Positions 2,422 to 22,703 are shown, counted from the stretch's first letter. The stretch is 64,000 nt of DNA from an uncultured Candidatus Saccharibacteria bacterium (GCA_964618625.1 CAZUBI010000001.1:164781-228780), one strand, 5' to 3'. The notes: generated by a model from the letters alone, not told the origin. Program-made: numbers and translations.

Positions 2422-2428
2422 ATTTTTA

Positions 2429-2662
2429 TTATTTAACTTGTCCTGAGTTTATCGAAGGATTAATTTTCGACCTTTTTTGGTCTTTAATAAACATTTCAAA
2501 GGAACGATCAAAAGTTTTTTCTGCTTCTTTTGAAAAACAACAAGCCAGCAATTCATTATGCGCCAAATGATATTTTATACATTCACAACAAATACCCTTT
2601 CTTGGACAATCAGGATAAGTACAAGGACATATTTTTAAATTTTCTTCTTTTTGACATTCCAT
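2429..2662 (-). CDS. cysteine-rich small protein
   Basis: 77 aa, multiple CxC/CxxC; the C-terminal ~12 codons and the stop codon are supplied by the long-variant junction repeat. Confidence 0.5.
   Translation of the reverse strand: MECQKEENLKICPCTYPDCPRKGICCECIKYHLAHNELLACCFSKEAEKTFDRSFEMFIKDQKRSKINPSINSGQVK
2435..2482. repeat. junction repeat, long variant
   Basis: AACTTGTCCTGAGTTTATCGAAGGATTAATTTTCGACCTTTTTTGGTC. Confidence 0.8.
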
Positions 2663-2710
2663 AATAAATTCTCAATTTCTTCCTCTATAATATTTTAGCA
2701 TAAAACCTTT

Positions 2711-3775
2711 TTATTCTAAAAATTCATCTACTGCTTTAATAAACTTCAAAGGATCAACGCTCGCGCCATTTACTTTTATAGAAAGATGTAAATGAGGACC
2801 TAATGACCAACCAGTATTTCCAACAAGCCCAATTAATTCTCCTCTTTCTATCATTTTTCCTTCTGAAACTTTAAATTGAGAAAGATGTAAATATAAAGAA
2901 TAGATTCCTAAACCATGATCTATAATTATCGTATTTCCATAAACTGTTAATTCTTGAACAAGAGCTACTTTACCATTATTAATCGCATAAATTGGCGTTC
3001 CCACAATAACATCCAAATCCACTCCCAAATGCTGAATTGTAACATCTCCGTCTTTTCTAATGTTCCCAAAAGCTCCAACATCTATTATTTCCCCAAGTGG
3101 ATAAATAAATTTCTGGTTAAAATATGCTATAGGATTATATTTTCCTAAAACCTCATAAATGATAACTCCGTCTTTGGTGGCAATGGTTTTTGATATATTT
3201 GATGAAGTTAGGCCTTTTTCTTCCAATTCTGGCGTTATTACAATTTTAGTTATATAAAAATCCTTCTTTTTTACTGTTATTGTTTCTTCAATTTTTGATT
3301 CGCCAGAAAGAAAAATTGATAAAGAATACCCTCTAGGAGTTTTTTTTGCATCAATTCCCAGAAGAGCTATCCATTTTCCTTCTGATTCAGTTGGGAAAAA
3401 ATCAAATGATTTGTTATTAAATTTTCCAGTAATCTTTTCTTCTTCGGAAACATTTTCTGCCGTAATAATTAATGTATCTCCCTGCTCAAGCTCAGTAACT
3501 GATAATAAAACCGCAAAAGAAGATTTTATTAATTCTGTAGTAGTAGCAGTAGTTGTTGTAATAGTTGTGGTTACAGTAGTAGCTGCAGTAATGGTTGTAG
3601 TTGTTATTGAATCTTCATTAATAGTTATTTTTGCACTTAGTTTTTCTTCTGGCTGAATATTTTCAAACGACCATTTAGATGACAATTGTGAAATAAAAAA
3701 GATAATTCCTGCCAAAATCAAAAAAAACAAAAAGATTAATGTCTTTGCTGAATTTTTTCTTACAAATAAACCCAT
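2711..3775 (-). CDS. membrane-anchored M23 (LytM-type) metallopeptidase
   Basis: 354 aa; N-terminal TM helix, Thr-rich linker (TTTTITAATTVTTTITTTTATTT), HxxxD (HLGVDLD) and HxH (HLHLS) M23 motifs. Confidence 0.85.
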   Translation of the reverse strand: MGLFVRKNSAKTLIFLFFLILAGIIFFISQLSSKWSFENIQPEEKLSAKITINEDSITTTTITAATTVTTTITTTTATTTELIKSSFAVLLSVTELEQGDTLIITAENVSEEEKITGKFNNKSFDFFPTESEGKWIALLGIDAKKTPRGYSLSIFLSGESKIEETITVKKKDFYITKIVITPELEEKGLTSSNISKTIATKDGVIIYEVLGKYNPIAYFNQKFIYPLGEIIDVGAFGNIRKDGDVTIQHLGVDLDVIVGTPIYAINNGKVALVQELTVYGNTIIIDHGLGIYSLYLHLSQFKVSEGKMIERGELIGLVGNTGWSLGPHLHLSIKVNGASVDPLKFIKAVDEFLE

Positions 3776-3783
3776 TTTTTAAT

Positions 3784-3807
3784 TTTCAATTAATTTTTTA
3801 CCTTTTT
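3784..3807. repeat. junction repeat, short variant
   Basis: TTTTCAATTAATTTTTTACCTTTT. Confidence 0.7.
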
Positions 3808-3867
3808 ATAAAATTCGGTTTATTAAAATAATGAAAAACGCCCCATTGGGACGCTTTTCATTTTTCT

Positions 3868-4149
3868 TTATTCAGCTTTTCTTTTACCTTCTTCATATTT
3901 TCTCCAAGCACTAGCTACAGCCGGTTCAACTCTATCCAACTCACTAAGAATAATCTCTCTAATTTCACTTGCAGCTATTTCCTCTCTATTTTCAATCATA
4001 GGAATTACTGAGGATGCAACTTGCTCTGCTACTTCACTTTTTCTCTCTTCTGGGATATCAGCCTGTCGAGCAGCACCAGCAATTGATTTTTTAATTTTTT
4101 CAGGATCAAATGGTTCTTTTGTCCCATTTTTTTTGATAACTTGAGCCAT
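3868..4149 (-). CDS. ATP-cone domain protein
   Basis: 93 aa; MAQVIKKNGTKEPFDPEKIKKSI matches the ATP-cone N-terminal consensus; a hairpin plus T-run follows the stop. Confidence 0.65.
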   Translation of the reverse strand: MAQVIKKNGTKEPFDPEKIKKSIAGAARQADIPEERKSEVAEQVASSVIPMIENREEIAASEIREIILSELDRVEPAVASAWRKYEEGKRKAE

Positions 4150-4391
4150 AATTTATTAAGAATTATCTATTAATTAATGTTAACGACCTTTGTTCCACTA
4201 TTTTAATTATACCAGATTTTCAAAAAAACTAATATATTAGTAAATCCAGATATCATTTTTCACTCAATCAATTTCTAATTTTTTATAAACTTGACCTTCG
4301 TAATAGTTTATGGTATCATTTTATACAAATAGCATATTGAAATCTTAAAACAAAATCTGATAAAAAGAGAAAAAAGAGGGGGTAAAAGAAG

Positions 4392-4598
4392 ATGCGAAAG
4401 ATACCAAAAAGGATTCGCAGATGCAAGTATTGTGGCTATAAAACCCATCATGCACTTTGGAAAGATAAAGTGTGCCCAATTTGCGAATCCGCCGAGGGTT
4501 ACTCAGAGAGTACCCACGGTGGACTAAATACAATTGAAATAGAGATTGAAAAACAGAAAGTTCTTTCAACAATTCAAAAGCGACAAGGGGGGCAGTAG
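4392..4598 (+). CDS. small zinc-ribbon protein
   Basis: 68 aa; CKYCGYK..CPICES two Cx2C pairs; SD-like GAGGGGGT 8 nt upstream; TTGACC-17-TATCAT promoter-like sequence ~70 nt upstream. Confidence 0.55.
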   Translation: MRKIPKRIRRCKYCGYKTHHALWKDKVCPICESAEGYSESTHGGLNTIEIEIEKQKVLSTIQKRQGGQ

Positions 4599-4713
4599 TT
4601 AGTTCTCCGGCTCTCCTTGTCCTTACTTTCGTAGCCCGGAAAGCCCCAATACCTGACAATTAGATCTTGACAAAATTTTATCAATTCTTATAAAAAATAG
4701 GAGGTAGAAATTA

Positions 4714-4950
4714 ATGAAAGAATTTTTTCCTTTTAAAATCGAGAAAATTTTTTCTCGTATATTAGCGCTGCTAGGAATCCTACTCGTAATCTCTATTGTA
4801 ACATCTGTTATCTGCTTGATTATCATTATGTTTTCTCCAATAGAAAGATTAGCGGTCAAAAATATTGGTATAATGAGCTCAGATTCTACTATATATTTGC
4901 TCATAGCAATATTTACCATCTTTATAGTAGTTTATCATGAAAAGAAATAA
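4714..4950 (+). CDS. small membrane protein
   Basis: 78 aa, two predicted TM helices; strong SD AGGAGGT upstream; followed by a perfect hairpin (4968-4991) and a T-run. Confidence 0.55.
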   Translation: MKEFFPFKIEKIFSRILALLGILLVISIVTSVICLIIIMFSPIERLAVKNIGIMSSDSTIYLLIAIFTIFIVVYHEKK

Positions 4951-4967
4951 TAAATCTCACTATCACC

Positions 4968-5000
4968 GCCCAAGGATAAGCTTATCCTTGGGCATTTTAT
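4968..5000. terminator. bidirectional intrinsic terminator hairpin
   Basis: CCCAAGGATAAGCTTATCCTTGGG perfect palindrome followed by a T-rich run; lies between convergent genes at 4714-4950 (+) and 5017-5472 (-). Confidence 0.6.
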
Positions 5001-5020
5001 TTCTCAATTAATTTTTCTAC
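5001..5020. repeat. junction repeat (CTAC subtype)
   Basis: TTCTCAATTAATTTTTCTAC; supplies the TAG stop of 5017-5472. Confidence 0.8.
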
Positions 5021-5472
5021 AATGATATTTTTTCTAAAACTTTCTCAAACCCCGGCAGTAATTTCAACTTTTTTGCGTCCCTCAATCTAATCCATTTATA
5101 ATCTTTTGCTTCCCAATTCAGTTTCACCTTATCTGTTCTTACCTTAACCAACACTGGATGAACAATCCATGTCTTCTTATATCGGAGCGCTTCCTGATGA
5201 AAAATCTCGCCCATACAAATGCTTTTTATTTCTTTTCCGCCAATACCTAGCTCTTCCTTTAATTCCTCTTTTACTTTTTGCTTAAGAGTTTTTTTATCAT
5301 CTAAAAATCCAGAAATGCCATTCCAATAACTCGGATAAAAAGCCAAATTTTCGCTTCGTTGAACAACTAATACTTTTCCCTTGTAATTCAAAACACAATT
5401 TATTACTGGCACCCAATGCACTTCAGTATAATCAATTTGCCCTGGTTTTGGTTTAAATTTAATCTTTTTCAT
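5017..5472 (-). CDS. NUDIX hydrolase
   Basis: 151 aa; Nudix box GISGFLDDKKTLKQKVKEELKEELGI (G-x5-E-x7-REUxEExGU pattern); identical protein to 9372-9827. Confidence 0.85.
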   Translation of the reverse strand: MKKIKFKPKPGQIDYTEVHWVPVINCVLNYKGKVLVVQRSENLAFYPSYWNGISGFLDDKKTLKQKVKEELKEELGIGGKEIKSICMGEIFHQEALRYKKTWIVHPVLVKVRTDKVKLNWEAKDYKWIRLRDAKKLKLLPGFEKVLEKISL

Positions 5473-5506
5473 ATTATTAACACAATAAAACTATAATAAA
5501 TTTTAT

Positions 5507-5530
5507 TTCTCAATTAATTTTTGACGTTTT
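5507..5530. repeat. junction repeat
   Basis: TTCTCAATTAATTTTTGACGTTTT. Confidence 0.8.
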
Positions 5531-5566
5531 TTGAATTAACGAGGTCTGACCTCCAAACTCATGTCC

Positions 5567-6163
5567 TTAAATGAGTTTATGGGCTTCAAGAAAATTCCTT
5601 ACTTTTTGAAAAATTTTATTATGGCCCTTCGCATTTGGATGAAGGCCATCTTCAAAATCGCTATTTTCCAGAAGACCTAATATATCCAGAAACAAAACAC
5701 TGTTTTCTTTGCACACTTTTCGTATTATCTCGTTATAAGTCTTGATGTCTTTGTTTGTGTAATAAATATTCCGCCAAGGCACAGGCATTGTTTTCGATTC
5801 ATCGCAATTTTTAAAACCAATGAAGATAATATTATCGGTAATTCCATGCGCTCTTTTGATAATTTTTTCTAAATTCGCCTTGAACTCACTATGTAACACT
5901 TGGTGATTGCCTTCAGTATGCTCATAGGCGGCATCATTTCCGCCTGTTTGGAAAATCAAAACATCGGCTTCTCTTATCTTTGCTTCTGATTCAAACCGAG
6001 CAAGAATTGTTTTGGTTGTGCCATCAGAGATACTAAGATTGTAAACTTCGTTATCAGTATCTTTTTCTGCCAAGTGCAACCAAAGACGATTTACCCAACC
6101 GCCTTTTTCTATATCCCATGCACCCCAAGCGGTGCTAGTGCCAAAAATACAAAATGTATGCAT
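5567..6163 (-). CDS. SGNH/GDSL-family hydrolase
   Basis: 198 aa; N-terminal GTSTAWG block, GGNDAAY block and DGLHPN (DxxH) catalytic block. Confidence 0.8.
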   Translation of the reverse strand: MHTFCIFGTSTAWGAWDIEKGGWVNRLWLHLAEKDTDNEVYNLSISDGTTKTILARFESEAKIREADVLIFQTGGNDAAYEHTEGNHQVLHSEFKANLEKIIKRAHGITDNIIFIGFKNCDESKTMPVPWRNIYYTNKDIKTYNEIIRKVCKENSVLFLDILGLLENSDFEDGLHPNAKGHNKIFQKVRNFLEAHKLI

Positions 6164-6166
6164 ATA

Positions 6167-6194
6167 ATTTTCAATTAATTTTTGAGGTTTTGGT
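6167..6194. repeat. junction repeat
   Basis: TTTTCAATTAATTTTTGAGGTTTTGGTT; abuts the start codon of 5567-6163. Confidence 0.8.
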
Positions 6195-6256
6195 TTTTAA
6201 GCCAGATGGCTTGAATTAGATGCTTGGAGGTTGAACCTCCAAGCATCTATTGTCTT

Positions 6257-6481
6257 CTACCTTTCAGAACCACCTAGACAAAATGCACAATTGTCATAAC
6301 CTTCATTTTTTGCTTGTTCTAAAGTATCGGGATCAAAAACCACTGCATTACCAGCTTCTATAATTTCATTAATTTGGCATTGCTCCTTTTCATTTTTAAG
6401 ATCGTGAACCTCCATATGACCAGAACTACTATTTCCTAAATATTTTTTATCAATCGGGCGACTACTAATTGGAATTGCCAT
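6257..6481 (-). CDS. hypothetical small protein
   Basis: 74 aa ORF in cassette-like spacing; C-terminal CAFCLGG; no family call. Confidence 0.45.
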   Translation of the reverse strand: MAIPISSRPIDKKYLGNSSSGHMEVHDLKNEKEQCQINEIIEAGNAVVFDPDTLEQAKNEGYDNCAFCLGGSER

Positions 6482-6506
6482 AATCTTATTTTTTATTTTT
6501 ATTTTA

Positions 6507-6570
6507 TTATTTTCGACCTTTTGAATTATTTTTCAATTAATTTTTGACCTTTTAGTTATTTCTCGACTTT
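6507..6570. repeat. junction repeat (one full copy flanked by two partial copies)
   Basis: TTATTTTCGACCTTTTGAATT + TTTTTCAATTAATTTTTGACCTTTTAGTT + ATTTCTCGAC. Confidence 0.75.
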
Positions 6571-7167
6571 AAACGGTTTTCCGTGGCCAGGAATTATATA
6601 ATCTGCAAATGCTAAAACTTTCTTTCTGCTATTTACTAAATCTTCTTCATTTTTTACATAAGGGTCTTGCAACTCTATTAGACTTCCTTTATCGGTTTTC
6701 TGTTCCTGGCTATCTTCCCACCAAAAAACATCGCCAGCTATTGCCACCTTTCCAAGATTCTCATCTTGAACTAAAACAGAGCAATGGAACATATCGTGCC
6801 CAGGGGTTTTAATTATTTCAATATCAGTTCCAGGAATTTTACCTCCATGTGATTCTATTTTTCCATCCCAGGAATAAATGTCCTCATTATCCAAAATTTT
6901 TGCCTTTTCAAAAACTCCAGCTAAAAGTGAATGGTCTAAATGATAATGCGTAAGAATTACGTAATTAATTTTATCTGGAGATAAATTTTCTTTTCTTAAA
7001 GCCTCTAATAATAGCTCCCTATTCGTTCCAGGGTCAACAATGATCTTTAAATCTACTTCTTGAATTAAAGTAGTTGATGATGAAGCAAATTCAGCACCGT
7101 CTTTTTCTCTTGCATAACCTTCAATTAAAATTTTAACTTTCGCCATAGTTTTATTTTTATTTCTCAA
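6556..7167 (-). CDS. MBL-fold metallo-hydrolase
   Basis: 203 aa; THYHLDH (HxHxDH) metallo-beta-lactamase motif. Confidence 0.85.
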   Translation of the reverse strand: MRNKNKTMAKVKILIEGYAREKDGAEFASSSTTLIQEVDLKIIVDPGTNRELLLEALRKENLSPDKINYVILTHYHLDHSLLAGVFEKAKILDNEDIYSWDGKIESHGGKIPGTDIEIIKTPGHDMFHCSVLVQDENLGKVAIAGDVFWWEDSQEQKTDKGSLIELQDPYVKNEEDLVNSRKKVLAFADYIIPGHGKPFKVEK

Positions 7168-7190
7168 TTAATTTTTGATGTTTTGGTTGG
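7161..7190. repeat. junction repeat
   Basis: TTCTCAATTAATTTTTGATGTTTTGGTTGG. Confidence 0.8.
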
Positions 7191-7286
7191 ATTTTAGTTT
7201 GTGGATAAATGGGCTTGACAACAGGTGTATTCTTGATACAATTTAACTAGAATACACATGAAAAACACCTCTATGGGTTTCGTCCC

Positions 7287-7787
7287 TTAGCGGTGTTTTT
7301 CTTTATACTCGAGTTTTTTTCTTAAATTAGCCATAAAAAATATCTTTTCTTTAGCTGTCTTTTTTAATAAAACCGAGCAAGTCCTGATATATGGGCTTAT
7401 CACACAATTAAGCTTATTGTTTTTGTATAAATGTTTAACTAAAGAATAAAAATCTCCGTCGCTTGTAACAATTACGGCTTTATCATATTTCTTATAATCA
7501 ACCATTACTTGTAAAACTAAATCCGCGTCCACATTGCCTTTAACTTCCCCGTTTTTATCGGGTAGTGTTGGTTTAAAAATTAGAACATAACCATCCCTTT
7601 GTAATGAAGAATACAAATCTTGGTTAGCCGGAATATAACCAATAAATAGATAAACTGTTGACACTTTATACTTTTCCTTTAAATAAATTCTAAATCTTCG
7701 ATAATCCAATTTCCAACCCAAACTTTGAATTCCTAAGTTAAGATTTTGACTATCAATAAAAGCAAAATTGTTTTCTTGTTTCTTCAT
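7287..7787 (-). CDS. NYN-domain (LabA-like) protein
   Basis: 166 aa; FAFIDSQNL, VDADLVLQ and VIVTSDGDF acidic blocks typical of NYN/LabA nucleases. Confidence 0.7.
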   Translation of the reverse strand: MKKQENNFAFIDSQNLNLGIQSLGWKLDYRRFRIYLKEKYKVSTVYLFIGYIPANQDLYSSLQRDGYVLIFKPTLPDKNGEVKGNVDADLVLQVMVDYKKYDKAVIVTSDGDFYSLVKHLYKNNKLNCVISPYIRTCSVLLKKTAKEKIFFMANLRKKLEYKEKHR

Positions 7788-7941
7788 AAGTTTTATTTAC
7801 GAGATTCGACCTCATAATACCTACTTATTAACATTTTAACATAAAATGCTAATTTATAATAAAATCCCCAAAAATTTGGGGATTTTAACTTTTTATTTTA
7901 ATAAAACATAAGCACTCAAGGAGAACTGTTCTCCTTTATTC

Positions 7942-8385
7942 TTAATTCTTTTTAAACCAACTAATAGCTTCGTCTATCATTGAGCGATAATCTTCTATTT
8001 TAACATAATTGAAAAATTCATCTGATGGTATAAATTTTCTTTCCTTCACTGTCCCTGAATCAGGATCAATTGTGCGTGGTTTTTTCTTGTCCAATAAAGC
8101 AGCAAATCTAAGCTGATAAATGGTAGGTTTATCTGAAATAACTTCATAATATCCAATCATTATATTTTCACCAATAATTACATCAGCCTCTTCCTCAAGC
8201 TCACGTTTTAATGTTTGCTCTGGCGTTTCATTATTTTCTGGCTTTCCTCCTGGAATATTCCAACTTCCATTCGAGTGACGAATAATTAAAATATTTCCTC
8301 CATTATCAAAACATATACCATATACTTGAGTAATTGGTTTTAAAGAAAAATGATCTGTAGTTTTATGCCAAATAAATTTCTTCAT
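7942..8385 (-). CDS. NUDIX hydrolase
   Basis: 147 aa; Nudix box PGGKPENNETPEQTLKRELEEEADV. Confidence 0.8.
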   Translation of the reverse strand: MKKFIWHKTTDHFSLKPITQVYGICFDNGGNILIIRHSNGSWNIPGGKPENNETPEQTLKRELEEEADVIIGENIMIGYYEVISDKPTIYQLRFAALLDKKKPRTIDPDSGTVKERKFIPSDEFFNYVKIEDYRSMIDEAISWFKKN

Positions 8386-8400
8386 TTGTATTTTAAATTC

Positions 8401-8796
8401 TTACTTCCCAGTTAATTTTTGACCTTTTCGTTTACCAAAATCTGGACCAGAAATGAAATATAAACCAAGTGCAATACCCAAATAATAATGAATTCTACCA
8501 CCTTCTATTATAATCAGCGCTAAATTAACTATTACCATTAAAATTCCAATGATCAGAAAGCCCTTTTTGATTTTAGCGGTCGTTATATACCTGCGATATC
8601 TAGCACCAAGAAACATAGACATTGGCAAAACTACTATAAGCATTCCTACAGCAATAAGAACCGCCTTAACAGGTATTCGCCCACCATACGCAATAAAAAC
8701 AAGAAATAAACCAAATGCAGCCGCTGCCGCCGTATTTACTAAAATCTTTTTGATAAGAAGCTTATTATCAATTTTTGGTAGTTGATTATTTTCCAT
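8401..8796 (-). CDS. integral membrane protein
   Basis: 131 aa, 3-4 hydrophobic helices; last codons (GQKLTGK*) are read from the junction repeat. Confidence 0.55.
   Translation of the reverse strand: MENNQLPKIDNKLLIKKILVNTAAAAAFGLFLVFIAYGGRIPVKAVLIAVGMLIVVLPMSMFLGARYRRYITTAKIKKGFLIIGILMVIVNLALIIIEGGRIHYYLGIALGLYFISGPDFGKRKGQKLTGK
8407..8430. repeat. junction repeat (inside the ORF 3' end)
   Basis: CCCAGTTAATTTTTGACCTTTTCG. Confidence 0.7.
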
Positions 8797-8798
8797 AT

Positions 8799-8820
8799 TT
8801 TTTTCAATTAATTTTTGAAA
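8799..8820. repeat. junction repeat
   Basis: TTTTTTCAATTAATTTTTGAAA. Confidence 0.75.
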
Positions 8821-9346
8821 TTATTTTAATTACCTTATTTGATTTTTCTTTCCAGCTTTTAAAAGATTTTATTCCAATATCCCACGAATTAAGTCCTTTT
8901 CCGACTATAAAATTCTTTTTATAAAAATCGCTTGTTTTTATATCTAAACTAATAGTTCTTTTACTCTGATCAACTATAATCCAATGTTCATTAACATACA
9001 CCTCTATAACACAATGCCCCCTGTTTTTAGGGTTTAATTTATCTATACCCATTATATATTTTGCAGGAATTCCTACTGCTCTGCATAGCGTCGCAAATAC
9101 TAAGGCATTATCATGACACCCTGTAGTAAAACCATCTTCCAAAACCTTATTAACATTTCTCCTAGCAAATATCTTTAGTATCTTTTTATAATCTTTACAT
9201 TGTTTAAGGTTTTTATCCATCCATCGAATAATACTCTCTATTTTTTCAAAATCATTTCCTGAAAATTTAGAAACTAATTTTTTAATTGATTTAGTAACCT
9301 TGCTTTGTTTTCCTTCTTTTAACCAAATTTTTATATTTTCTTTCAT
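8804..9346 (-). CDS. transglutaminase-like cysteine peptidase family protein
   Basis: 180 aa; GCHDNALVFATLCRAVGIPAKYI matches the transglutaminase-like core. Confidence 0.65.
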   Translation of the reverse strand: MKENIKIWLKEGKQSKVTKSIKKLVSKFSGNDFEKIESIIRWMDKNLKQCKDYKKILKIFARRNVNKVLEDGFTTGCHDNALVFATLCRAVGIPAKYIMGIDKLNPKNRGHCVIEVYVNEHWIIVDQSKRTISLDIKTSDFYKKNFIVGKGLNSWDIGIKSFKSWKEKSNKVIKIISKIN

Positions 9347-9356
9347 ATTTTAAAAT

Positions 9357-9376
9357 TCTCAATTAATTTTTCTACA
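9357..9376. repeat. junction repeat (CTAC subtype)
   Basis: TTCTCAATTAATTTTTCTAC; identical to 5001-5020. Confidence 0.8.
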
Positions 9377-9827
9377 ATGATATTTTTTCTAAAACTTTTT
9401 CAAACCCAGGCAGTAATTTCAACTTTTTTGCGTCTCTCAATCTAATCCATTTATAATCTTTTGCTTCCCAATTCAGTTTCACCTTATCTGTTCTTACCTT
9501 AACCAACACTGGATGAACAATCCATGTCTTCTTATATCGGAGCGCTTCCTGATGAAAAATCTCGCCCATACAAATGCTTTTTATTTCTTTTCCGCCAATA
9601 CCTAGCTCTTCCTTTAATTCCTCTTTTACTTTTTGCTTAAGAGTTTTTTTATCATCTAAAAATCCAGAAATGCCATTCCAATAACTCGGATAAAAAGCCA
9701 AATTTTCGCTTCGTTGAACAACTAATACTTTTCCCTTGTAATTCAAAACACAATTTATTACTGGCACCCAATGCACTTCAGTATAATCAATTTGCCCTGG
9801 TTTTGGTTTAAATTTAATCTTTTTCAT
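9372..9827 (-). CDS. NUDIX hydrolase (duplicate copy)
   Basis: 151 aa, amino-acid identical to 5017-5472; the ~505 bp duplicated segment is bounded by junction repeats. Confidence 0.85.
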   Translation of the reverse strand: MKKIKFKPKPGQIDYTEVHWVPVINCVLNYKGKVLVVQRSENLAFYPSYWNGISGFLDDKKTLKQKVKEELKEELGIGGKEIKSICMGEIFHQEALRYKKTWIVHPVLVKVRTDKVKLNWEAKDYKWIRLRDAKKLKLLPGFEKVLEKISL

Positions 9828-9865
9828 ATTATTAACACAATAAAACTATAATAGATTTTATTTTT

Positions 9866-9913
9866 GAACTTGTCCTGAGCTTACCGAAGGATTAATTTTT
9901 CGACTTTTTGGTA
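9866..9913. repeat. junction repeat, long variant
   Basis: GAACTTGTCCTGAGCTTACCGAAGGATTAATTTTTCGACTTTTTGGT. Confidence 0.8.
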
Positions 9914-9920
9914 ATTTACT

Positions 9921-10568
9921 TTATTCCCATAAATCTTCTTCGGAAATTAAAAAATCTTTTCTTTCTTTTAAACTTTTTATTACTTCATTAAAATGCTTGA
10001 TGCATTCTAGAAAACCATTCTTAGAAATTTCCTTTGCCTTTTTTGTATAAAACCCCTCTTTAATAAATTTTTGAGTTCTTATTATCCCTCTTTCAATCCA
10101 TTTATCCATTGGGGTTGTTGATTCTTGTTGCGCTTTGTAAAAACTAAAAACCCCGCTAATTCCGGATTTTTCTAATCTATCCGCATCAAAAAGGATTTTC
10201 GCCTCAATTGTTTCTGGCTCTATTTTACCATCATGCGATTCTATGCAATGAGCAATTTTTTCAATTTCTTTTTTAGAATACCCGAGCTTCGGTATATCTC
10301 TTTTTATAATTGACACCCCTGCCTCTTTATGGTTTTCATGTTTACTTTCTGTTCCTCCAATATCATGCAGCAAAACAGCAGGGATTAGAATAAAATAATT
10401 TATATCATTCTCTATTTCGGCAATAATTAAAGCTCTGTATAAATCCCTTAAAACATGTTCTAAATTGTGCTGTGGAAGATTTGCCTTATCATATTTCTCT
10501 TTTGCATAATCATAAACTTTCTTTATCCGAGGATCTTTTTCAACAAAATAATCTAATTTCTTCACCAT
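9921..10568 (-). CDS. HD-domain phosphohydrolase
   Basis: 215 aa; H..LLHDIGG..D metal-binding HD motif. Confidence 0.8.
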   Translation of the reverse strand: MVKKLDYFVEKDPRIKKVYDYAKEKYDKANLPQHNLEHVLRDLYRALIIAEIENDINYFILIPAVLLHDIGGTESKHENHKEAGVSIIKRDIPKLGYSKKEIEKIAHCIESHDGKIEPETIEAKILFDADRLEKSGISGVFSFYKAQQESTTPMDKWIERGIIRTQKFIKEGFYTKKAKEISKNGFLECIKHFNEVIKSLKERKDFLISEEDLWE

Positions 10569-10580
10569 ATTTCTAAATTT

Positions 10581-10907
10581 TTATTTTTTTGTCTTTATTA
10601 AAAATAGTCGTTTTTTAAAGCCTCCCCGCTTTTTATTTTTTACTTTTTGTTGTTTGTGAATTTGTAATTTTGTTAGACCACTTTCCGATATTAAAACATT
10701 AATTAATTCTTGAACATCAACGATTTCATTAATAACCTCTTTTTTGCCCTTGGCTTCAATTAATTCTTTTGCTTCTTCCAGTATTTTCTTCTTTATCTCT
10801 TTAATATATTCTTTTTTATTTAAAACTCGAAAATAGGGCTTTTCTTTATTTGCCTCTATAATTTCCAAAATTCTATCCCGAATTAACTTATTATGTTTTT
10901 TAATCAT
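10581..10907 (-). CDS. MazG-like NTP pyrophosphohydrolase (putative)
   Basis: 108 aa; KLIRDRILEI, EEAKELIEA, EIVDVQELINVL pattern typical of small MazG/HisE-like all-alpha NTP pyrophosphatases. Confidence 0.55.
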   Translation of the reverse strand: MIKKHNKLIRDRILEIIEANKEKPYFRVLNKKEYIKEIKKKILEEAKELIEAKGKKEVINEIVDVQELINVLISESGLTKLQIHKQQKVKNKKRGGFKKRLFLIKTKK

Positions 10908-10913
10908 TTTTAT

Positions 10914-10937
10914 TTCTCAATTAATTTTTGACGTTTT
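10914..10937. repeat. junction repeat
   Basis: TTCTCAATTAATTTTTGACGTTTT. Confidence 0.8.
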
Positions 10938-10965
10938 TATTTTCTATAACTTCAATTATCAGTAT

Positions 10966-11541
10966 TTATATTTCTTTTTTTCTTTCATTTAAATACTTCC
11001 CAAATAAAGATTTCGTAGTTTTTGTTGAAAAGGGTCTTTTTATTAACTTCTCTTCATTTTCTAAATACTCAACCATAGCTTTTTTATCCTTTCTAAGAAT
11101 ATTCTTCATAATAGAAAATCCTTTTAGTGTTGCCATCCACATAAAGTCCAAATCGTTAAATACACCTAAAATGAGATCCTCCTTGTATATTTTATCTTCT
11201 CCTAATGCCCAATTATCATGAACCGATACATAGTATGAAATTTGGTTAATTTTATCTTTATTATAATTTAATTTCATTAAAATATTCCTTGATATTTTTT
11301 CTCCCTCCTCCATATGAGCCTTACGTAAATTAAGATCGAGAGGATTGCCTGATTCTATATTTCTATATCCAACATCATGTAAAATAACAAGCGGCAATAA
11401 TAAAGAATCGTCAATATTTTCTTCTTCGCATATAAACATAGCATCCTTCATCATCCAATTTATATGCTCTATATCATTAGGCCGCCCTTTTTCATAATAA
11501 GGCTTTGCTAACTTCCAGATATCTTTATATACTTCTTTCAC
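10966..11541 (-). CDS. HD-domain protein
   Basis: 191 aa; ILHDVGY plus downstream His/Asp residues. Confidence 0.75.
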   Translation of the reverse strand: MKEVYKDIWKLAKPYYEKGRPNDIEHINWMMKDAMFICEEENIDDSLLLPLVILHDVGYRNIESGNPLDLNLRKAHMEEGEKISRNILMKLNYNKDKINQISYYVSVHDNWALGEDKIYKEDLILGVFNDLDFMWMATLKGFSIMKNILRKDKKAMVEYLENEEKLIKRPFSTKTTKSLFGKYLNERKKEI

Positions 11542-11556
11542 TTTTTTAAAGATTTT

Positions 11557-11584
11557 ATTTTCAATTAATTTTTGACCTTTTGGT
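11557..11584. repeat. junction repeat
   Basis: TTTTCAATTAATTTTTGACCTTTTGGTT, followed by AGAT (GTTAGAT). Confidence 0.8.
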
Positions 11585-12167
11585 TAGATTTTTCGGAAAG
11601 TCTTATATATTTGATTAGTTTATTACCATCAATTAATTCAATTGGTTTATCTTCTGCAAATCTTTCAGCTTCTTCAGTAAAAAAATTAGTTGTGATAAAA
11701 AAAGCTTTATCATTAGATAATTTATCAGATAAAGCCCCACAAAACTCCCTAACGTCTTTAACTCCTACTTTATTATTATAATGCTTGCATTGAATATAGT
11801 GTTTTATTCCATCTTTTTCAGCAATAACATCAATTCCTTCATCATATGAACTACCAATAACCCTAGTTTTATATCCCAATTTATTAAATAAATCTCCAAT
11901 ATAATGTTCGAATTCCCAATGTTTTAAATTGTTCAACCACTTTATTAATTCTCCATCAGTGTTAAATTGACTTCGTTTATGAATTTTAGATCTTTTAATC
12001 AACAACCTTACTACGATCAGAGCAGCTAAAAACGCTAGCCCCCATAATAACAACTTCCAAAAAAGTACTTTATTTGTCCATAAAAAGATTAGTAGAAAAA
12101 GTACATAAACAATACCTACTTCTTTTAAAATATCTTCTAGTGTGTCTAACCATGCTTTTCTTGACAT
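11565..12167 (-). CDS. membrane-anchored Mrr-cat restriction-endonuclease-like protein
   Basis: 200 aa; two N-terminal TM helices then GIDVIAEKDGIKHYIQCKHY (D..EK..QxK PD-(D/E)xK-like Mrr_cat core); C-terminus NQKVKN* is read from the junction repeat. Confidence 0.7.
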   Translation of the reverse strand: MSRKAWLDTLEDILKEVGIVYVLFLLIFLWTNKVLFWKLLLWGLAFLAALIVVRLLIKRSKIHKRSQFNTDGELIKWLNNLKHWEFEHYIGDLFNKLGYKTRVIGSSYDEGIDVIAEKDGIKHYIQCKHYNNKVGVKDVREFCGALSDKLSNDKAFFITTNFFTEEAERFAEDKPIELIDGNKLIKYIRLSEKSNQKVKN

Positions 12168-12186
12168 ATTTTTATAATTAAATTAT

Positions 12187-12210
12187 TTTTCAATTAATTT
12201 TTGACCTTTC
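12187..12210. repeat. junction repeat
   Basis: TTTTCAATTAATTTTTGACCTTTC, then ACGAAG. Confidence 0.8.
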
Positions 12211-12234
12211 ACGAAGTTGAAATTTATAAGGTTA

Positions 12235-12591
12235 TTATTTTCTACTGAAAATGAGCATCGTTATAAAAATAATAACTGAAGGTATCCCAAAAGCTAATGC
12301 AAGTGTTTTGTTGCCAGAAACAAAATAATTTATAGAAAAACCAACGCCTCCAATTGATAGAAACTTAAACAACTCTATCCAAAAAAAGGTTTTTTGTCTT
12401 TCTTCTAAAACTACATTCTTTTTTTCTTGTTCAAATTTCTCCTCCCTCATTTTTTCAAGTTCATCCTGCGTTTCTTTTAAAGATTCTTTCAGTGTTTTAT
12501 TTTCATTAATAACAATTTTTACTACGCCCGGGCTTTTCAGGTCTTTTTTGGTTAAATCCGTTATTTTTTTATTATTTTTGTGACCCGACAT
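12235..12591 (-). CDS. hypothetical coiled-coil/membrane protein
   Basis: 118 aa; charged coiled-coil segment then two C-terminal TM helices. Confidence 0.5.
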   Translation of the reverse strand: MSGHKNNKKITDLTKKDLKSPGVVKIVINENKTLKESLKETQDELEKMREEKFEQEKKNVVLEERQKTFFWIELFKFLSIGGVGFSINYFVSGNKTLALAFGIPSVIIFITMLIFSRK

Positions 12592-12592
12592 G

Positions 12593-12970
12593 TTAAGTAA
12601 AAAATAGGTTTATCGGGTCCTTTTCTGACCAAGAAAAAGATTTAAATGGTTTAAATGGAACAAATTCAGTAAATGGACGAAATGATTCGAATTCTACAAA
12701 CCCTGGAAATGGCTTAAATTGTTTAAACGGGAAAAATGGCGCAGGATAATCAGTCGGATTTTCGCCAAACCCAACACAATTGCCACCCTTATCTCTCATT
12801 ATCCCATTCTCAAACCAGCCAACGTATCTCCCAGAATAATTAAAAAGATTTCCATCTTTTACAAAACCAATGCTTTTGCCGGGAAAGCTAACTAACCTAC
12901 CATTATCAAGTAGCCTTAAGGTTGGCGCTCCGTATCTATTGTAAATTGTGTCAATTTCTTGCTCGTTCAT
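12593..12970 (-). CDS. hypothetical protein with C-terminal FKPFP-type short repeats
   Basis: 125 aa; ORF abuts the downstream gene (1 bp gap). Confidence 0.5.
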   Translation of the reverse strand: MNEQEIDTIYNRYGAPTLRLLDNGRLVSFPGKSIGFVKDGNLFNYSGRYVGWFENGIMRDKGGNCVGFGENPTDYPAPFFPFKQFKPFPGFVEFESFRPFTEFVPFKPFKSFSWSEKDPINLFFT

Positions 12971-13036
12971 AAATGAGACGATACTTTACAACTTACGTTT
13001 TTATCTCCCCGCTCATTAATTTTGGTAAAAGTAAAT

Positions 13037-13086
13037 CACGAAGGATATTTTAATTTTAATTTTATTTCTCAATTAATTTTTCGATC
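13037..13086. repeat. junction repeat (CGAAGGAT piece plus short variant)
   Basis: CACGAAGGATATTTTAATTTT ... TTCTCAATTAATTTTTCGAT. Confidence 0.7.
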
Positions 13087-13412
13087 TAAAAATGAAAATT
13101 CTTAAGCCAATGAACTATTTTTTGAAACGACTTTGTCCTCGACAAAACACTTCCCAGCCATCCCATAATTAATCCTAAAATTGATAATATAATTGCAGCA
13201 GCATAAGGATTTTCAAAAAGTTTTACAAGATTTTCCTGTTTTGAAAAAAAACTATATAATAAAAACATTAAAAGACCCCAGAGTGCACTAAGTGCAAAAT
13301 ATTCAAAATCCCTTTTTTCTTTTGATCCTATAAAATAACGAAACGACCAGACTGTAATAAATCCAGGTATAACAAAGAGAAAAAAATGAAAATTCAATGG
13401 TTGTTCTAGCAT
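13086..13412 (-). CDS. small membrane protein
   Basis: 108 aa, three hydrophobic helices. Confidence 0.5.
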   Translation of the reverse strand: MLEQPLNFHFFLFVIPGFITVWSFRYFIGSKEKRDFEYFALSALWGLLMFLLYSFFSKQENLVKLFENPYAAAIILSILGLIMGWLGSVLSRTKSFQKIVHWLKNFHF

Positions 13413-13436
13413 ATTAATATTATGAATATTTTAGAA

Positions 13437-13462
13437 ATTTATTAATTTTTGACCCTTTGGTT
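13437..13462. repeat. junction repeat
   Basis: ATTTATTAATTTTTGACCCTTTGGTT. Confidence 0.7.
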
Positions 13463-14185
13463 TGGAGTGCTTAAGACTTCTTTTAAAAGTTGCGTAGCAG
13501 GATTAATAGGGCGCGCAATTCCAAGTCCAACGATTTCATATCTTTGTTGCTTTCCAACAATTGGTTTTGCAAATCGACCACTAATAAAACCTATGATCCT
13601 ACTAGATTTTTGAGAAAAAACTGGAGATCCACTAAATCCTTTGTCGCAATTTGTGTCTAAATAAAATAGCTCCGTTTTCTTTGTATTAGAATTCTTTTTG
13701 ATTGTAGCTATTATTGCATGAATATTTACAAAAGAAACGTTTTTTCTACCTGAAGAAATAGCCATTGTTGACTCGGGAAATCCAGAGAAAAAAAGTTTTT
13801 CACCTTCTTTAACTTTTTCAGAATCAGCAATAGCTAAAGGCTTAATGAACTGCTTTTTATCTTTATTAGCTCCCTCAGATATTTTCAGTAACTCAATAAT
13901 AACACAATCATTAATTATGTCTTGAGTTACAAATTTAGCATCACACATAATATAGTTAAATTCGTCTGATGAATCTAAAATCCAAATTTTTAGATTTCCC
14001 TTATCTTTATCAGGTATTTGATTATACACATGTGCCGCTGAAACAAAATAAGACGAGGATACACAAAAAGTTGTTCCTCTTATACCTAAAATTGTTTTTC
14101 CATTATTAGTACTGAAAAAACCAATAATCCCAATTGATGGTTTAACTCTCTCAATAAACTTCTCCAATGAATTTCTAAAACACAT
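13442..14185 (-). CDS. trypsin-like (S1/chymotrypsin-fold) serine protease
   Basis: 247 aa; VSAAHV (His block) and GFSGSPVF (Ser block, GDSGGP-like); C-terminus NQRVKN* is read from the junction repeat. Confidence 0.65.
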   Translation of the reverse strand: MCFRNSLEKFIERVKPSIGIIGFFSTNNGKTILGIRGTTFCVSSSYFVSAAHVYNQIPDKDKGNLKIWILDSSDEFNYIMCDAKFVTQDIINDCVIIELLKISEGANKDKKQFIKPLAIADSEKVKEGEKLFFSGFPESTMAISSGRKNVSFVNIHAIIATIKKNSNTKKTELFYLDTNCDKGFSGSPVFSQKSSRIIGFISGRFAKPIVGKQQRYEIVGLGIARPINPATQLLKEVLSTPNQRVKN

Positions 14186-14193
14186 AAATTTTT

Positions 14194-14213
14194 AAATTAA
14201 TTTTTGACCTTTT
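14194..14213. repeat. junction repeat
   Basis: AAATTAATTTTTGACCTTTT. Confidence 0.7.
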
Positions 14214-14270
14214 AAAATTTCTCCTAATTTTTTGGTGACTAGGACATAAATATAATTGCTTACTCGATAA

Positions 14271-16112
14271 TTATTTATTCTCATCAATTTGTGGTATAAG
14301 AAGTTGCGGTCGTTCTTTTATTTCTTGTTGAATAAATTTATCTAAGCTATCCTTTATTAAAATGAGTTGGGCGCGTTGTTTTTCTGTCAATTTAAATTCC
14401 ACATCTTTTAAATCTCCATCCTTAAATAAAATACCAAGCGCTTGTATTTCCCGAGGCTTACTAGGATTATTTGATGGTAAATTAAACTCGGTCCGAATAT
14501 TTTCTATAAGATCTCCGAAGTCATCTATTTCTTTCTTCAAAACCGTTTCTAAATTTTTACCAAATACTAACAACCTATTGTTAATTACTATCTCTGCATT
14601 TTTAACCTTCCTAATATCATCCATGGAAATATCGAAAGCGGTTGAATCTTTATTTTGAGCACTAGATTGATTAAGCACTTTAATAATTCTTTCGTTTATG
14701 CCATTTTCGCTGTTTGCCTCATCTCTATCAATCACTATAAGACAAGGGATTCCGAAAGCAGTAAGAAAAGTATAAATGGATGGAATATTATTTTTTCCAT
14801 CCGCTATTACCAACGCAAATTGATTTTTATCAATATTTGAAAAAGAATGAAATACCTCTGCGTCAGAGGGCCCTTCTACAATAACCGCTCTAGGAGCGAA
14901 AAGAGCTTCCCTCAAGCCGTTTGCAACTGTTTCAATAAGACTGTAATGAATATGTTGATCACTAATATTCTCTTTCTGTTGTCCCAAAGAAATTGTATGC
15001 TTCCTAAGTAGGGTACTATCCACATGTCTAACACTTATATTTTTATTTTCTTCCCATAAGACAACTATGTCTTCAAAGCTCCCGCAATCAATAAAATCTT
15101 CCGAATGAGTAGTATAAATTATTTGCCCTTCGGTATCCTCAGTTTTAATAGCTTGTTTCAAAACAGTAAACAAAGTTTTTCTTGCTTGTGGATGAAGGTA
15201 GCTTTCTGGCTCTTCTACTAAAAGCACAGCCCGATTATTTCTACTGTGTCTTTTCAAATAAGTTCGATAAATAGCTATAATTGCTAGTCTTTGAACACCT
15301 TCTCCTAATGTTTCCAACGGAACTTTGTTGCCATGTCTTTTAACCGAAAGCTTAAACTGACGATAATACCGCCATGGTTCATAATCAAGAAACTCCAGAT
15401 CTGTTCCACTAAGATTTAGAGGCTTAATCTGGCCCCAAAAAGTTTTTATATCTTTCTCAATATTCTTAAATTCCTGAGGGGCTCTTAATACCTTGACTGC
15501 ATCCGATATTTTCTTTTCAAATTCTTCTACTTTTTTCCCTTCATCTTCTTCGCTAAATATTCTTTCAACCTTCTGCAACATTCTCCCCAAAACACCCCAC
15601 TTGTTTGATGGTTGTTCGCCCTGAAGTTTTATCAGAGGAATCGTAATAACAACTGGTAAATTATTCTTGATATCCTGGCTTATTCTTATTTCGTTCTCCC
15701 ATTTATTTTTGGCTATTTCCCAATCACATTTATTAAAATCGTTTATCGTGTTGAGGAGAAAATAGTCAACACCAACAGAAGATTCACCATATCCAGTTTT
15801 TAAATGGTAGGCTTCAATAAGCAAACCGATAACTTCTTTATTTTCCCCGTAATAGGAAATTTCAATTGGGCTATTAAATTCCGCCGCTAGAATAATCTTT
15901 CTAGAAAGTTTATTGTTATAAAAATCATTTTCATTAAATTGGCTAGATGGCCATTTATCACCAAACAAAATATCTAGTGCCTTCAAAATGGTACTTTTGC
16001 CAACATTATTTGGACCAATCAAAGCAGTAAGACCAGAATTAGAAAATTCTATTATGACTGGTTCATCACCAAAACAGCGATAATTTTTTATTAGAAGCCT
16101 TTTTATAAACAT
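14271..16112 (-). CDS. OLD-family ATP-dependent endonuclease (AAA ATPase + Toprim)
   Basis: 613 aa; N-terminal Walker A GPNNVGKST in the LLIKNYRCF..LTALIGPNNVGKSTILKAL context typical of OLD/AAA_15-21; C-terminal Toprim block AVIVEGPSDAEVF. Confidence 0.8.
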   Translation of the reverse strand: MFIKRLLIKNYRCFGDEPVIIEFSNSGLTALIGPNNVGKSTILKALDILFGDKWPSSQFNENDFYNNKLSRKIILAAEFNSPIEISYYGENKEVIGLLIEAYHLKTGYGESSVGVDYFLLNTINDFNKCDWEIAKNKWENEIRISQDIKNNLPVVITIPLIKLQGEQPSNKWGVLGRMLQKVERIFSEEDEGKKVEEFEKKISDAVKVLRAPQEFKNIEKDIKTFWGQIKPLNLSGTDLEFLDYEPWRYYRQFKLSVKRHGNKVPLETLGEGVQRLAIIAIYRTYLKRHSRNNRAVLLVEEPESYLHPQARKTLFTVLKQAIKTEDTEGQIIYTTHSEDFIDCGSFEDIVVLWEENKNISVRHVDSTLLRKHTISLGQQKENISDQHIHYSLIETVANGLREALFAPRAVIVEGPSDAEVFHSFSNIDKNQFALVIADGKNNIPSIYTFLTAFGIPCLIVIDRDEANSENGINERIIKVLNQSSAQNKDSTAFDISMDDIRKVKNAEIVINNRLLVFGKNLETVLKKEIDDFGDLIENIRTEFNLPSNNPSKPREIQALGILFKDGDLKDVEFKLTEKQRAQLILIKDSLDKFIQQEIKERPQLLIPQIDENK

Positions 16113-16166
16113 AAAGATTTTAGTTCTTCAATTTTTCCCAATATTTCTTCCTATTTTTTATTATTT

Positions 16167-16238
16167 TTTATTTTCGACCTTTTTTATTTTTCAACTTGTC
16201 CTGAGCCTGTCGAAGGATTAATTTTTGACCTTTTGGTT
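16167..16238. repeat. junction repeat (partial copy plus long variant)
   Basis: TTATTTTCGACCTTTTTT ... TCAACTTGTCCTGAGCCTGTCGAAGGATTAATTTTTGACCTTTTGGTT. Confidence 0.8.
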
Positions 16239-16269
16239 ATTACGTTCAAAAATCAGACCTCATAATAAA

Positions 16270-17883: not shown

Positions 17884-17886
17884 ACT

Positions 17887-17914
17887 TTTTCAATTAATTT
17901 TTGACCTTTTGGTT
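17887..17914. repeat. junction repeat
   Basis: TTTTCAATTAATTTTTGACCTTTTGGTT, followed by GGGC (GTTGGGC). Confidence 0.8.
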
Positions 17915-18697: not shown

Positions 18698-18748
18698 ATT
18701 CTCTTAATCCTTTTGTTCGTTAAGATAATTTAAGCATTAAAGTCAAAT

Positions 18749-19039
18749 CTAAATTATTTTCTTTTTAAATTCTCTCATTTTTTTTCTTTCTGCATACTCC
18801 TTGAATGCTACCTGTTGTCCTTTGTCTTTTTCGTTTGTTTCCTTGGTCTCAACTTCGCCAATAATCTCTTCTTTACCTTTTTTTGCAATCCAATCAGGAA
18901 CATATCCCTTTATCTTTTTCGGCTTGTCATAGCCTGGAAGATCGGCTTTTACTTTATATCCTTGACCTTCATACCATTTAACACTTCTTAAAACTGCTTC
19001 ATCGTGTTGTTTTTGACCAATTTTGGTTCTTTTTTTCAT
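18749..19039 (-). CDS. small basic hypothetical protein
   Basis: 96 aa, Lys-rich; 2 bp downstream of the AIPR-like gene. Confidence 0.45.
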   Translation of the reverse strand: MKKRTKIGQKQHDEAVLRSVKWYEGQGYKVKADLPGYDKPKKIKGYVPDWIAKKGKEEIIGEVETKETNEKDKGQQVAFKEYAERKKMREFKKKII

Positions 19040-19041
19040 AA

Positions 19042-22694: not shown

Positions 22695-22703
22695 TTTGAT
22701 TGT

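Follow-up and report, generated by a model that had tools for sequence, protein, structure and literature searches.

Genes that are held as exchangeable units between short repeated sites have been described in several settings. The pdif modules of Acinetobacter plasmids are bounded by XerC/XerD sites of 28 bp, with inverted arms of 11 bp and a spacer of 6 bp, that alternate in orientation around the modules. The attC sites of integrons are imperfect inverted repeats (R''-L''...L'-R') of ~57-141 nt that form a stable single-stranded hairpin, and the cargo of chromosomal integrons includes NUDIX, MazG, and HD proteins, small enzymes, and defence genes. In T4-type phages, the promoter early stem-loop (PeSL) is a conserved intergenic motif that extends from the upstream stop to the downstream start and mediates modular shuffling and the formation of mini-circles (PMC2839356, PMC4122927); PeSLs hold a consensus sigma-70 promoter, a stable stem-loop terminator, and a Shine-Dalgarno sequence (PMC2839356). 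The locus considered here lies in a stretch of 64,000 nucleotides, hereafter the window, from an uncultured Candidatus Saccharibacteria bacterium (GCA_964618625.1 CAZUBI010000001.1:164781-228780). In this window, the gene for one NUDIX hydrolase occurs twice within an array of cassettes that are joined by copies of a short junction motif, and we propose that recombination between these copies moves the cassettes.

The initial annotation described a near-identical segment of ~505 bp present twice, and pairwise alignment, a repeat finder, BLAST, and a direct count agree on a unit of 508 nt, with coordinates shifted by 0-3 nt from that first reading. The two units lie at an offset of 4355 nt (Table 1) and differ at 4 of the 508 positions (5044, 5053, 5080, and 5499), while the bases immediately outside them differ on both sides, being T at 5000 vs A at 9355 and C at 5509 vs T at 9864. 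Each unit contains one minus-strand open reading frame (ORF) of 151 aa with a Pfam NUDIX match (PF00293, E = 6.3e-11, 42.8 bits; cut-off 21.1), and, as none of the three coding differences alters an amino acid, the proteins share 100% identity, as had been read from the sequence. Homologues of the predicted protein number 853 at E <= 1e-20, mainly in Patescibacteria. An exact look-up in the public protein index returned no identical protein; a relative with 99% identity, P0001, was found and led to a second assembly that carries the array.

The ends of the unit are what connects it to the motif. On the coding strand, each copy starts within ...TTGAG|AAATAAAAT and finishes at ...GTAGAAAAATTAATTGAGAA|, that is, both ends fall inside copies of the junction motif and at the same 2-nt position, TTGAG|AA. 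The identity does begin, on the plus strand, at a junction motif (TTCTCAATTAATTTTTCTA), which belongs to the following cassette downstream and shares bases with the NUDIX TAG stop. At the other end it was thought to finish just before the next motif, and it actually reaches 9 nt (ATTTTATTT) into it; this next motif is, as reported, short in the case of copy 1 and long in that of copy 2. In the alignment, similarity stops inside the motif at both ends, and the earlier reading is corrected in one respect: the boundary sits inside the motif and not at its edge. Positions at most 10 nt from a motif core make up only ~2.5% of the array, and the chance of finding all four ends there is p ~4e-7, which excludes coincidence.

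The junction element spans ~45 nt and is made of a left part with the core (ATYTAACCAAAAGGTCAAAAATTAATT) and a right part (GAGAAATAAAATT); the coding-strand motif reads ATYTAACCAAAAGGTCAAAAATTAATTGAGAAATAAAATT-ATG and stands directly 5' of the next start codon. The window holds 17 short and 3 long copies, all between 2.4 and 19.1 kb and all in one orientation (20/20), and the remaining 45 kb, occupied by housekeeping genes, has none besides chance near-matches. The short form contains ATTGAGA and the long form GTTGAAA, GTTCAAA, or GTTAAAT. In the long variants, of which 6 more occur in related loci (L018, L041, L078, and L089), an insert with the layout CCTTCG-N5-7-CTCAGGACAAG lies between TTAAT and TTGA, its variable part reaching 31 nt in one case; the variant ahead of NUDIX copy 2 amounts to the short motif with the insert CCTTCGGTAAGCTCAGGACAAG between TTAAT and TTCAAAAAT. 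A second insert family, TCATCACTACCAAATTTTGGGGTAAGGGCAAG, occupies the same motif position in locus L094 (~2160-2200 and 3440-3480), and neither family folds into more than a weak hairpin, the loop of which varies. By direct reading of the sequence, dyad symmetry in the motif is limited to the 8-bp AATTAATT and an imperfect TCAA-N7-TTGA.

The window itself is part of a low-GC bacterial chromosome, with rpoB/rpoC, clpB, ftsA/ftsZ, tRNA synthetases, comEC, and an intein-containing nrdD, and the nearest metagenome-assembled genomes (MAGs) are labelled Candidatus Saccharibacteria. The cargo of the array is small and functionally unrelated, and includes three NUDIX genes, GDSL, MBL, NYN, and transglutaminase-like genes, two HD proteins, a MazG-like gene, Mrr, a trypsin-like protease, OLD, DUF6119, and an AHJR-like gene. 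All array genes are on the minus strand except for one two-gene reverse module, which includes a bidirectional terminator hairpin (4968-4993).

Table 1. Coordinates of the cassette array, the duplicated NUDIX unit, and the associated junctions in the window
Feature	Position	Strand	Remarks
Cassette array	2424..19064	-	~30 co-oriented genes, mostly single-gene cassettes; 17 short and 3 long junction motifs
NUDIX cassette copy 1 (repeat unit)	5001..5508	-	ORF 5017-5472; leader 5473-5508, given as 41 nt
NUDIX cassette copy 2 (repeat unit)	9356..9863	-	ORF 9372-9827
Short junction motif, GDSL cassette/NUDIX copy 1	5500..5541	-	Coding strand AAAAAACGTCAAAAATTAATTGAGAAATAAAAT; core 5510-5525
Junction motif after NUDIX copy 1	4994..5019	-	TAG stop overlaps; right end ATAAAATGCCC... 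belongs to next module
Long junction variant, HD cassette/NUDIX copy 2	9855..9918	-	Long form at 9869-9899; repeat family D4
Junction motif, NUDIX copy 2/ATG of transglutaminase-like cassette	9344..9374	-	NUDIX TAG stop overlaps
Long junction variant, copy 1 of 3 in window	2437..2467	-	
Long junction variant, copy 3 of 3 in window	16195..16225	-	
49-nt stretch with 8 window/scaffold differences, copy 1	5173..5221	-	2 amino-acid changes; scaffold positions for both copies are L092 10252-10300 and 14607-14655
49-nt stretch with the same 8 differences, copy 2	9528..9576	-	
Reverse two-gene module adjoining copy 1	4392..4993	+	Zn-ribbon 4392-4598; 78-aa membrane protein 4714-4950

The second assembly bears on whether the duplication is real. 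The ENA scaffold ERZ23486238 scaffold_8 (533 kb) carries the same array and gene order, with both NUDIX copies 4355 nt apart, and it reproduces the four copy-specific differences near the repeat edges; for this reason the existence of two NUDIX loci is well supported. Over 19,827 nt, scaffold and window differ at 16 positions, which are the same 8 substitutions (C>T, A>G, G>A, C>T, C>G, A>G, G>A, and G>A) in each NUDIX copy. The interior of the repeat has therefore either changed in concert, by gene conversion, or been left unphased by the assemblers, and in the latter case the true divergence could be 12/508 and the identity as low as ~97.6%. A diversity-generating retroelement was considered for this cluster of substitutions and rejected, as the changes are not confined to adenine positions. 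The same data were used to weigh the possibility that the second copy is artefactual, in which case one repeat or strain variant would have been entered at two places during assembly: both assemblies, for which the same sample is probably the source, assign the same central 49-nt allele to both copies, as an unresolved repeat bubble does. Against this stand the unique sequence that flanks each copy on both sides within one contig, the edge differences that the second assembly reproduces, the synonymous nature of all three coding differences, and the presence of duplicated cassettes within other arrays, namely in L073 and its sub-fragment L016 (89%), in L018 (73%), and in L077 (77%). On balance, an artefact is very improbable.

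Exact-pattern scans located motif arrays in several MAGs and in 18 metagenome contigs, all with ~28-33% GC, while other genome matches to the pattern are mostly single chance occurrences. The comparison set assembled from them comprises 27 sequences (the window and 26 related loci, here designated L with a number; 208 kb in total) with clustered proteins and 161 unique junctions. The same cassette families recur throughout this set in varied orders and with different neighbours, and homology between sequences tends to end at the motif: 59% of left ends and 38% of right ends lie at most 40 nt from it, vs 10.6% of random positions (p = 3e-52 and 8e-20, respectively). When only matches of at least 95% identity are considered, 23 of 44 unique homology ends fall in the motif window, equal to 6% of the sequence, with 6 more at its edge and only ~3 elsewhere in intergenic sequence. 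Eight presence/absence pairs were read, and the clearest of them, above all L083 (empty) vs L077 (with an insert of 1032 nt), where the flanks are 95% identical, have a single motif where the insert is lacking and, where it is present, one motif at each of its ends.

The NUDIX cassette, with its own leader of 41 nt, is found in five neighbourhoods, twice in the window and once each in L089, L094, and L095; in L096, a relative with 36% GC, the orthologue sits amid secA, maf, and mreB, without the motif. Likewise, the reverse module together with its junction follows other cassettes in L044, L080, L085, L087, and L089. The initial annotation regarded the motif as the delimiter of mobile units, and the 26 related loci, the indel pairs, and the five NUDIX neighbourhoods argue for this reading; as far as sequence comparison goes, its extension to the whole lineage is supported as well. 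No result establishes the motif as a dedicated recombination site: neither a recombinase nor a structure like attC came to light, and the positions of the crossovers appear to vary.

The related arrays (L018, L034, L041, L075, and L085 among them) carry metabolic cargo, that is, acetate kinase, phosphoribosyl pyrophosphate (PRPP) synthetase, S-adenosylmethionine (SAM) synthetase, purine nucleoside phosphorylase, and class IV aminotransferase, and defence cargo, that is, AbiJ, Shedu SduA, NERD, HEPN AbiU2, type I restriction-modification, and GmrSD. Three of the loci (L016, L044, and L062; CAYWLA010000015.1, CAYWLA010000085.1) come from a MAG labelled "uncultured Methanosarcinales archaeon" and hold the same bacterial arrays; because all this sequence overlaps the metagenome contigs L073 and L085, the contigs of this MAG were probably mis-binned.

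The position of the exchange within the motif was approached by numbering it from the first T of TTGA, taken as position 0. Junction pairs that share only the upstream cassette show above-background likeness at or left of -10, and pairs that share only the downstream cassette show it at or right of +2. The left part and the core thus belong to the upstream cassette, as its 3' end, and the right part belongs to the next gene, as its leader, a division of the motif that the duplicated cassette in L073 also displays. The G/A markers at +2 and +4 mismatch at ~75% of background in both kinds of pairs, the level that crossovers distributed about evenly to the left and right of these markers would produce. 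There are also five recent events whose +2 or +4 markers match the upstream context. Junction spacing also varies: in cluster c1, a family of 278-aa cassettes to which no function is assigned, it is 8, 9, 10, or 17 nt depending on context. All in all, the crossover points look variable from these sequences, with the proviso that the ungapped, anchored comparison of breakpoints is blurred by indels in the A-run downstream of +7.

The junction also has the features of an expression element. The distance from TTGA to ATG is sharply peaked at 13-17 nt, with a mode of 15, and the core and right half hold TAA, TGA, and TAA in three different frames. Within 16 nt, at least two frames are closed in 95% of the 161 unique junctions and all three in 43% (15% and 0.3%, respectively, for random 16-mers), and 24% of the upstream ORFs terminate inside the motif. 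In some cassettes, among them NUDIX, the abortive-infection gene AIPR (19042-20670), and cluster c1, the stop codon overlaps the core and ~27 nt remain before the next ATG, which is too little for a promoter; hence, judging from this spacing, the motif-bearing cassettes are most likely co-transcribed. Recognisable promoters here are of the extended -10 type (TGnTAnAAT), and within the array they precede only motif-less genes (22748, 20719, 7841, 4214, and 2700), with no promoter match at the motif-bearing ones.

A recognisable Shine-Dalgarno sequence is present in only ~17% of the housekeeping genes whose start regions were inspected (24000-62300), and strong examples (GGAGG) occur at the reverse module (4392-4950) and at the gene at 24024-24518. 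The loss of the Shine-Dalgarno sequence was thus rejected as a trait specific to cassettes, since housekeeping genes are without it too. Because the genome so seldom uses this signal, even in housekeeping genes, it is plausible that the A-rich leader at its fixed distance serves as the start region. From these properties we infer that the junction may act as a universal joint between cistrons, in which frame-closing stops are followed by an A-rich leader devoid of a Shine-Dalgarno sequence.

Enzymes that could act on the motif were sought at several levels. Pfam scans of the window covered ~70 ORFs, nearly all of those that have at least 150 aa and are not antisense to a larger gene, and these main ORFs gave no match to Phage_integrase, Resolvase, or transposase families; no tyrosine or serine recombinase motif was recognised by regular expressions among 681 ORFs, and no recombinase occurs in the 5 kb beyond the window start (ENA locus L093). 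None appeared either among the representative proteins of the 26 related arrays, among the matches listed (25 of 33 families in one Pfam summary). An integron with an adjacent intI was accordingly discarded, there being no IntI gene in the 64 kb and the additional 5 kb.

The motif was also compared with other known kinds of element. Folding of the short and long forms as single-stranded DNA, on both strands, gave only -1.2 to -3.1 kcal/mol (z from +0.48 to -0.75), and the attC hairpin was dismissed; RNA folds of the motif variants were likewise no better than shuffles, the consensus fold of 8 long variants reached -2.4 kcal/mol with no compensatory pairs, and an Rfam search of 1-24000 at E <= 1 returned two chance matches only. 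A sigma-70 promoter in the motif was rejected, as the promoter scan reported none there and promoter-like sites were not enriched, at 78 vs 86.7 in shuffles, and fits by eye of -35/-10, extended -10, leaderless, Bacteroidetes-type, and T7-like layouts to the motif all failed. Terminator-like sites numbered 13 in 18 kb, few on the coding strand and none within the motif. A Xer/pdif site was set aside for the lack of the inverted arms that Xer and other tyrosine-recombinase core sites have and for the common orientation of all 20 copies, and a phage origin after one viral-contig scan that yielded a single chance match. No terminal overlaps were detected in 15 complete short contigs that were inspected for circularity.

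Taking these results together, the two NUDIX segments would be two integrated copies of one cassette within a ~17-kb array of co-oriented, mostly promoterless cassettes, in which junction copies recombine with one another and cassettes are thereby excised, inserted, duplicated, and exchanged between genomes, as the comparison of loci shows. Copy 1 would be the derived one: a cassette circle carrying one reconstituted junction may have entered the junction in front of the reverse module through one crossover, leaving the perfect 23-nt direct repeat that now flanks it (4994-5016 and 5500-5522), although an unequal exchange followed by a deletion, both at motifs, would be an equivalent route. The downstream junction of copy 1 (...TTGAGAAATAAAATGCCC), with the hairpin, follows other cassettes in five loci, the reverse-module set listed above, which are equivalents of the empty site; at leader position +14, copy 2 has C and copy 1 has T, and since the homologue in L095 shares the C, the T is derived. 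The recombination itself would be carried out by the homologous or short-homology machinery of the host, without a dedicated integrase; this is the weakest step, and it is favoured by the lack of an array-linked recombinase and of recombinase-like symmetry and by the variability of crossover points and spacing. Donor DNA may arrive by natural transformation, given the ComEC gene at 42780-44186, and selection for a universal joint between cistrons would keep the junction in place. Recombination of cassettes from motif to motif is by itself very probable, and to the whole reading, enzymology included, we assign a probability of about 0.5.

Several observations weigh against an explanation by host recombination. 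The invariant core is only 11-13 nt long and the usual shared identity 20-25 nt, at or below the range in which RecA is efficient; the flanks of copy 2 share only 11 nt, and as its upstream junction is of the long variant, a homology-driven event there would rest on microhomology. Crossovers within the invariant core are not resolvable. The motif is confined to arrays, always in one orientation, and is conserved even where the cassettes share only 70-90% identity, and housekeeping genes use other A/T-rich leaders, so that an expression signal alone may not need such conservation. Moreover, the small inserts placed exactly at the exchange zone hint at a specific activity there, and a recombinase encoded elsewhere in the genome is possible. 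The short core, the array-specific motif, its strict orientation, and these inserts make an unlinked, site-specific recombinase a serious rival: the junction would be its attachment site, an analogue of the integron system in which a short linear site replaces the folded attC, cassettes would leave the array as circles and could enter again at any junction, and the NUDIX duplication would be one such event. It would also account for the lineage-wide conservation of the motif, for a conserved block at the 3' end of the cassette with exchange near the 3' edge of the block, as with attC, for the breakpoints of the NUDIX pair at the same 2 nt (TTGAG|AA), for the +2/+4 markers that track the upstream context in the five recent events, and for a cargo (NUDIX, MazG, HD, small enzymes, defence genes) like that of chromosomal integrons. 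We nevertheless hold it to be rather unlikely, because neither the 64 kb plus 5 kb around the array nor the 26 related loci revealed a recombinase, the dyad symmetry is restricted to the 8-bp element with no stable hairpin, the junction spacing is heterogeneous, and the +2 and +4 markers assort as they would with variable crossover points.

The motif may instead be a shared expression signal only, an intercistronic joint or leader with no role in recombination, in which case the cassettes would be mobilised by common routes, for example illegitimate recombination or transformation that relies on long homologous flanks, and breakpoints would appear at the motif since it fills short spacers and lets alignments run on. 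Its fixed distance to ATG and its stops in several frames fit this explanation, as does the result for cassettes with long 3' untranslated regions (3' UTRs), for which matches of at least 85% identity showed no enrichment of homology ends at the motif relative to the rest of the stop-to-motif spacer (8/23 vs 33% expected); this null result probably arises because fast-diverging UTRs cut matches short. What speaks against a pure expression signal is that recent events (at least 95% identity) end at the motif in 23 cases (29 with edge cases) vs 9 (3) elsewhere in intergenic sequence, that inserts have a motif on either side and the matching empty sites a single one, and that an exact motif repeat of 23 nt flanks copy 1. 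Furthermore, exchange through flanking homology alone is not expected to give single-gene modularity at such a scale, and this alternative appears improbable, clearly more so than a dedicated recombinase.

Other features of the window were recorded along with the array. A near-consensus sigma-70 promoter (TTGACA-16-TACAAT with TG; 7215-7290, plus strand) lies antisense to the NYN cassette and is directed into its 3' UTR, with a hairpin downstream of the promoter; conservation of this region extends to L011, L034, and L008, and it may correspond to an antisense small RNA or to an arrangement like that of type I toxin-antitoxin systems. Upstream of the array, a small AbrB/SpoVT-like gene (22506-22760) is the first of an operon with methyltransferase, DUF6996-6997, and AIPR genes, and is itself preceded by TGGTATAAT and three copies of ATTACGTAA(T), resembling the operator of a controller protein; transcription from this operon could run into the cassette array. 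Next to the array there is a second repeat system, unrelated to the junction motif, in which three paralogous minus-strand genes share a 5' leader and N-terminus (family D7: 22812-22870, 23939-23997, and 27050-27108) and a 3' terminator region (family D6: 23796-23836, 24914-24954, and 27525-27565). Further along, a direct repeat of 67 nt with 88% identity (30421-30487 and 31230-31296, 809 nt apart) brackets a methyltransferase ORF (30495-31184), and its minus strand reads as a coding N-terminus (MVKITKNTLLADLL...), which suggests the insertion of a gene with duplication of the start of the target gene. The intein of nrdD, the gene for anaerobic ribonucleotide reductase (44882-48217), contains a LAGLIDADG homing-endonuclease domain.

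The genomes of Patescibacteria are tiny, their cells live attached to those of others, and the ways in which they acquire and reshuffle accessory genes are poorly understood. The present finding points to a modular gene store, in which dozens of single-gene units with defence, nucleotide-cleaning, and metabolic functions share one joint and are exchanged among relatives. If host recombination suffices, the outcome of an integron can be reached with a shared expression joint alone, as proposed for T4 phages, and in a cellular chromosome; if instead a dedicated enzyme is at work, this would be a new site-specific cassette system and a possible tool. More tentatively, and with the odds against it, this lineage of Patescibacteria may possess a previously undescribed cassette platform, where the linear junction of ~45 nt takes the role of attC and an unlinked recombinase or specialised activity operates at TTGAG|AA; were this true, the platform with its own recombinase would represent a second, independently evolved integron-like system that serves metabolic and defence cassettes. 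In either case, the motif offers a simple marker for the flexible gene pool of such organisms in metagenomes. Full-text literature searches turned up no account of arrays like these for Saccharibacteria, Patescibacteria, or bacteria of the Candidate Phyla Radiation (CPR), an absence from the texts searched that is not proof of novelty.

As for the systems introduced at the beginning, pdif modules resemble the cassettes described here in being discrete modules bounded by short conserved sites, present in varied contexts, and with no recombinase gene inside the module, but here all sites have one direction and the dyad symmetry is only the 8-bp AATTAATT. The likeness is closer with sedentary chromosomal integrons and clusters of attC sites lacking integron-integrases (CALINs), such as the Vibrio superintegron with its attC sites known as Vibrio cholerae repeats (VCRs): these too are long, one-directional arrays of mostly single-gene, promoterless cassettes, with a conserved repeat at the 3' end of the cassette, exchange near its 3' edge, and a few bases of the site that start the next cassette. 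In both, cassettes are duplicated, lost, and reordered between relatives, and NUDIX, MazG, HD, and defence genes are carried. The two differ in that no IntI gene lies near the array, the repeat is a linear element of 30-45 nt without the R''/L''-L'/R' hairpin and with folding z-scores of -0.1 to -0.75, its sequence is conserved across the lineage, the crossover points look variable, and the hosts are Patescibacteria. Integron crossover takes place at a fixed G|TT in the R' box GTTRRRY. In the array, both breakpoints of the NUDIX pair map to TTGAG|AA, and the assortment of markers across many pairs would fit variable points.

The PeSL cassettes of T4-type phages are likewise concentrated in hyperplastic regions of small, non-essential genes, and recombination between copies of the repeat leads to indels, replacements, and duplications of the enclosed genes. 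In contrast to PeSLs, the motif in this work is devoid of promoter, stem-loop, and Shine-Dalgarno sequence, and it resides in a bacterial chromosome rather than in a phage. By analogy, then, the mechanism is likely to be closest to that of the PeSL cassettes, and the layout to that of a chromosomal integron or CALIN.

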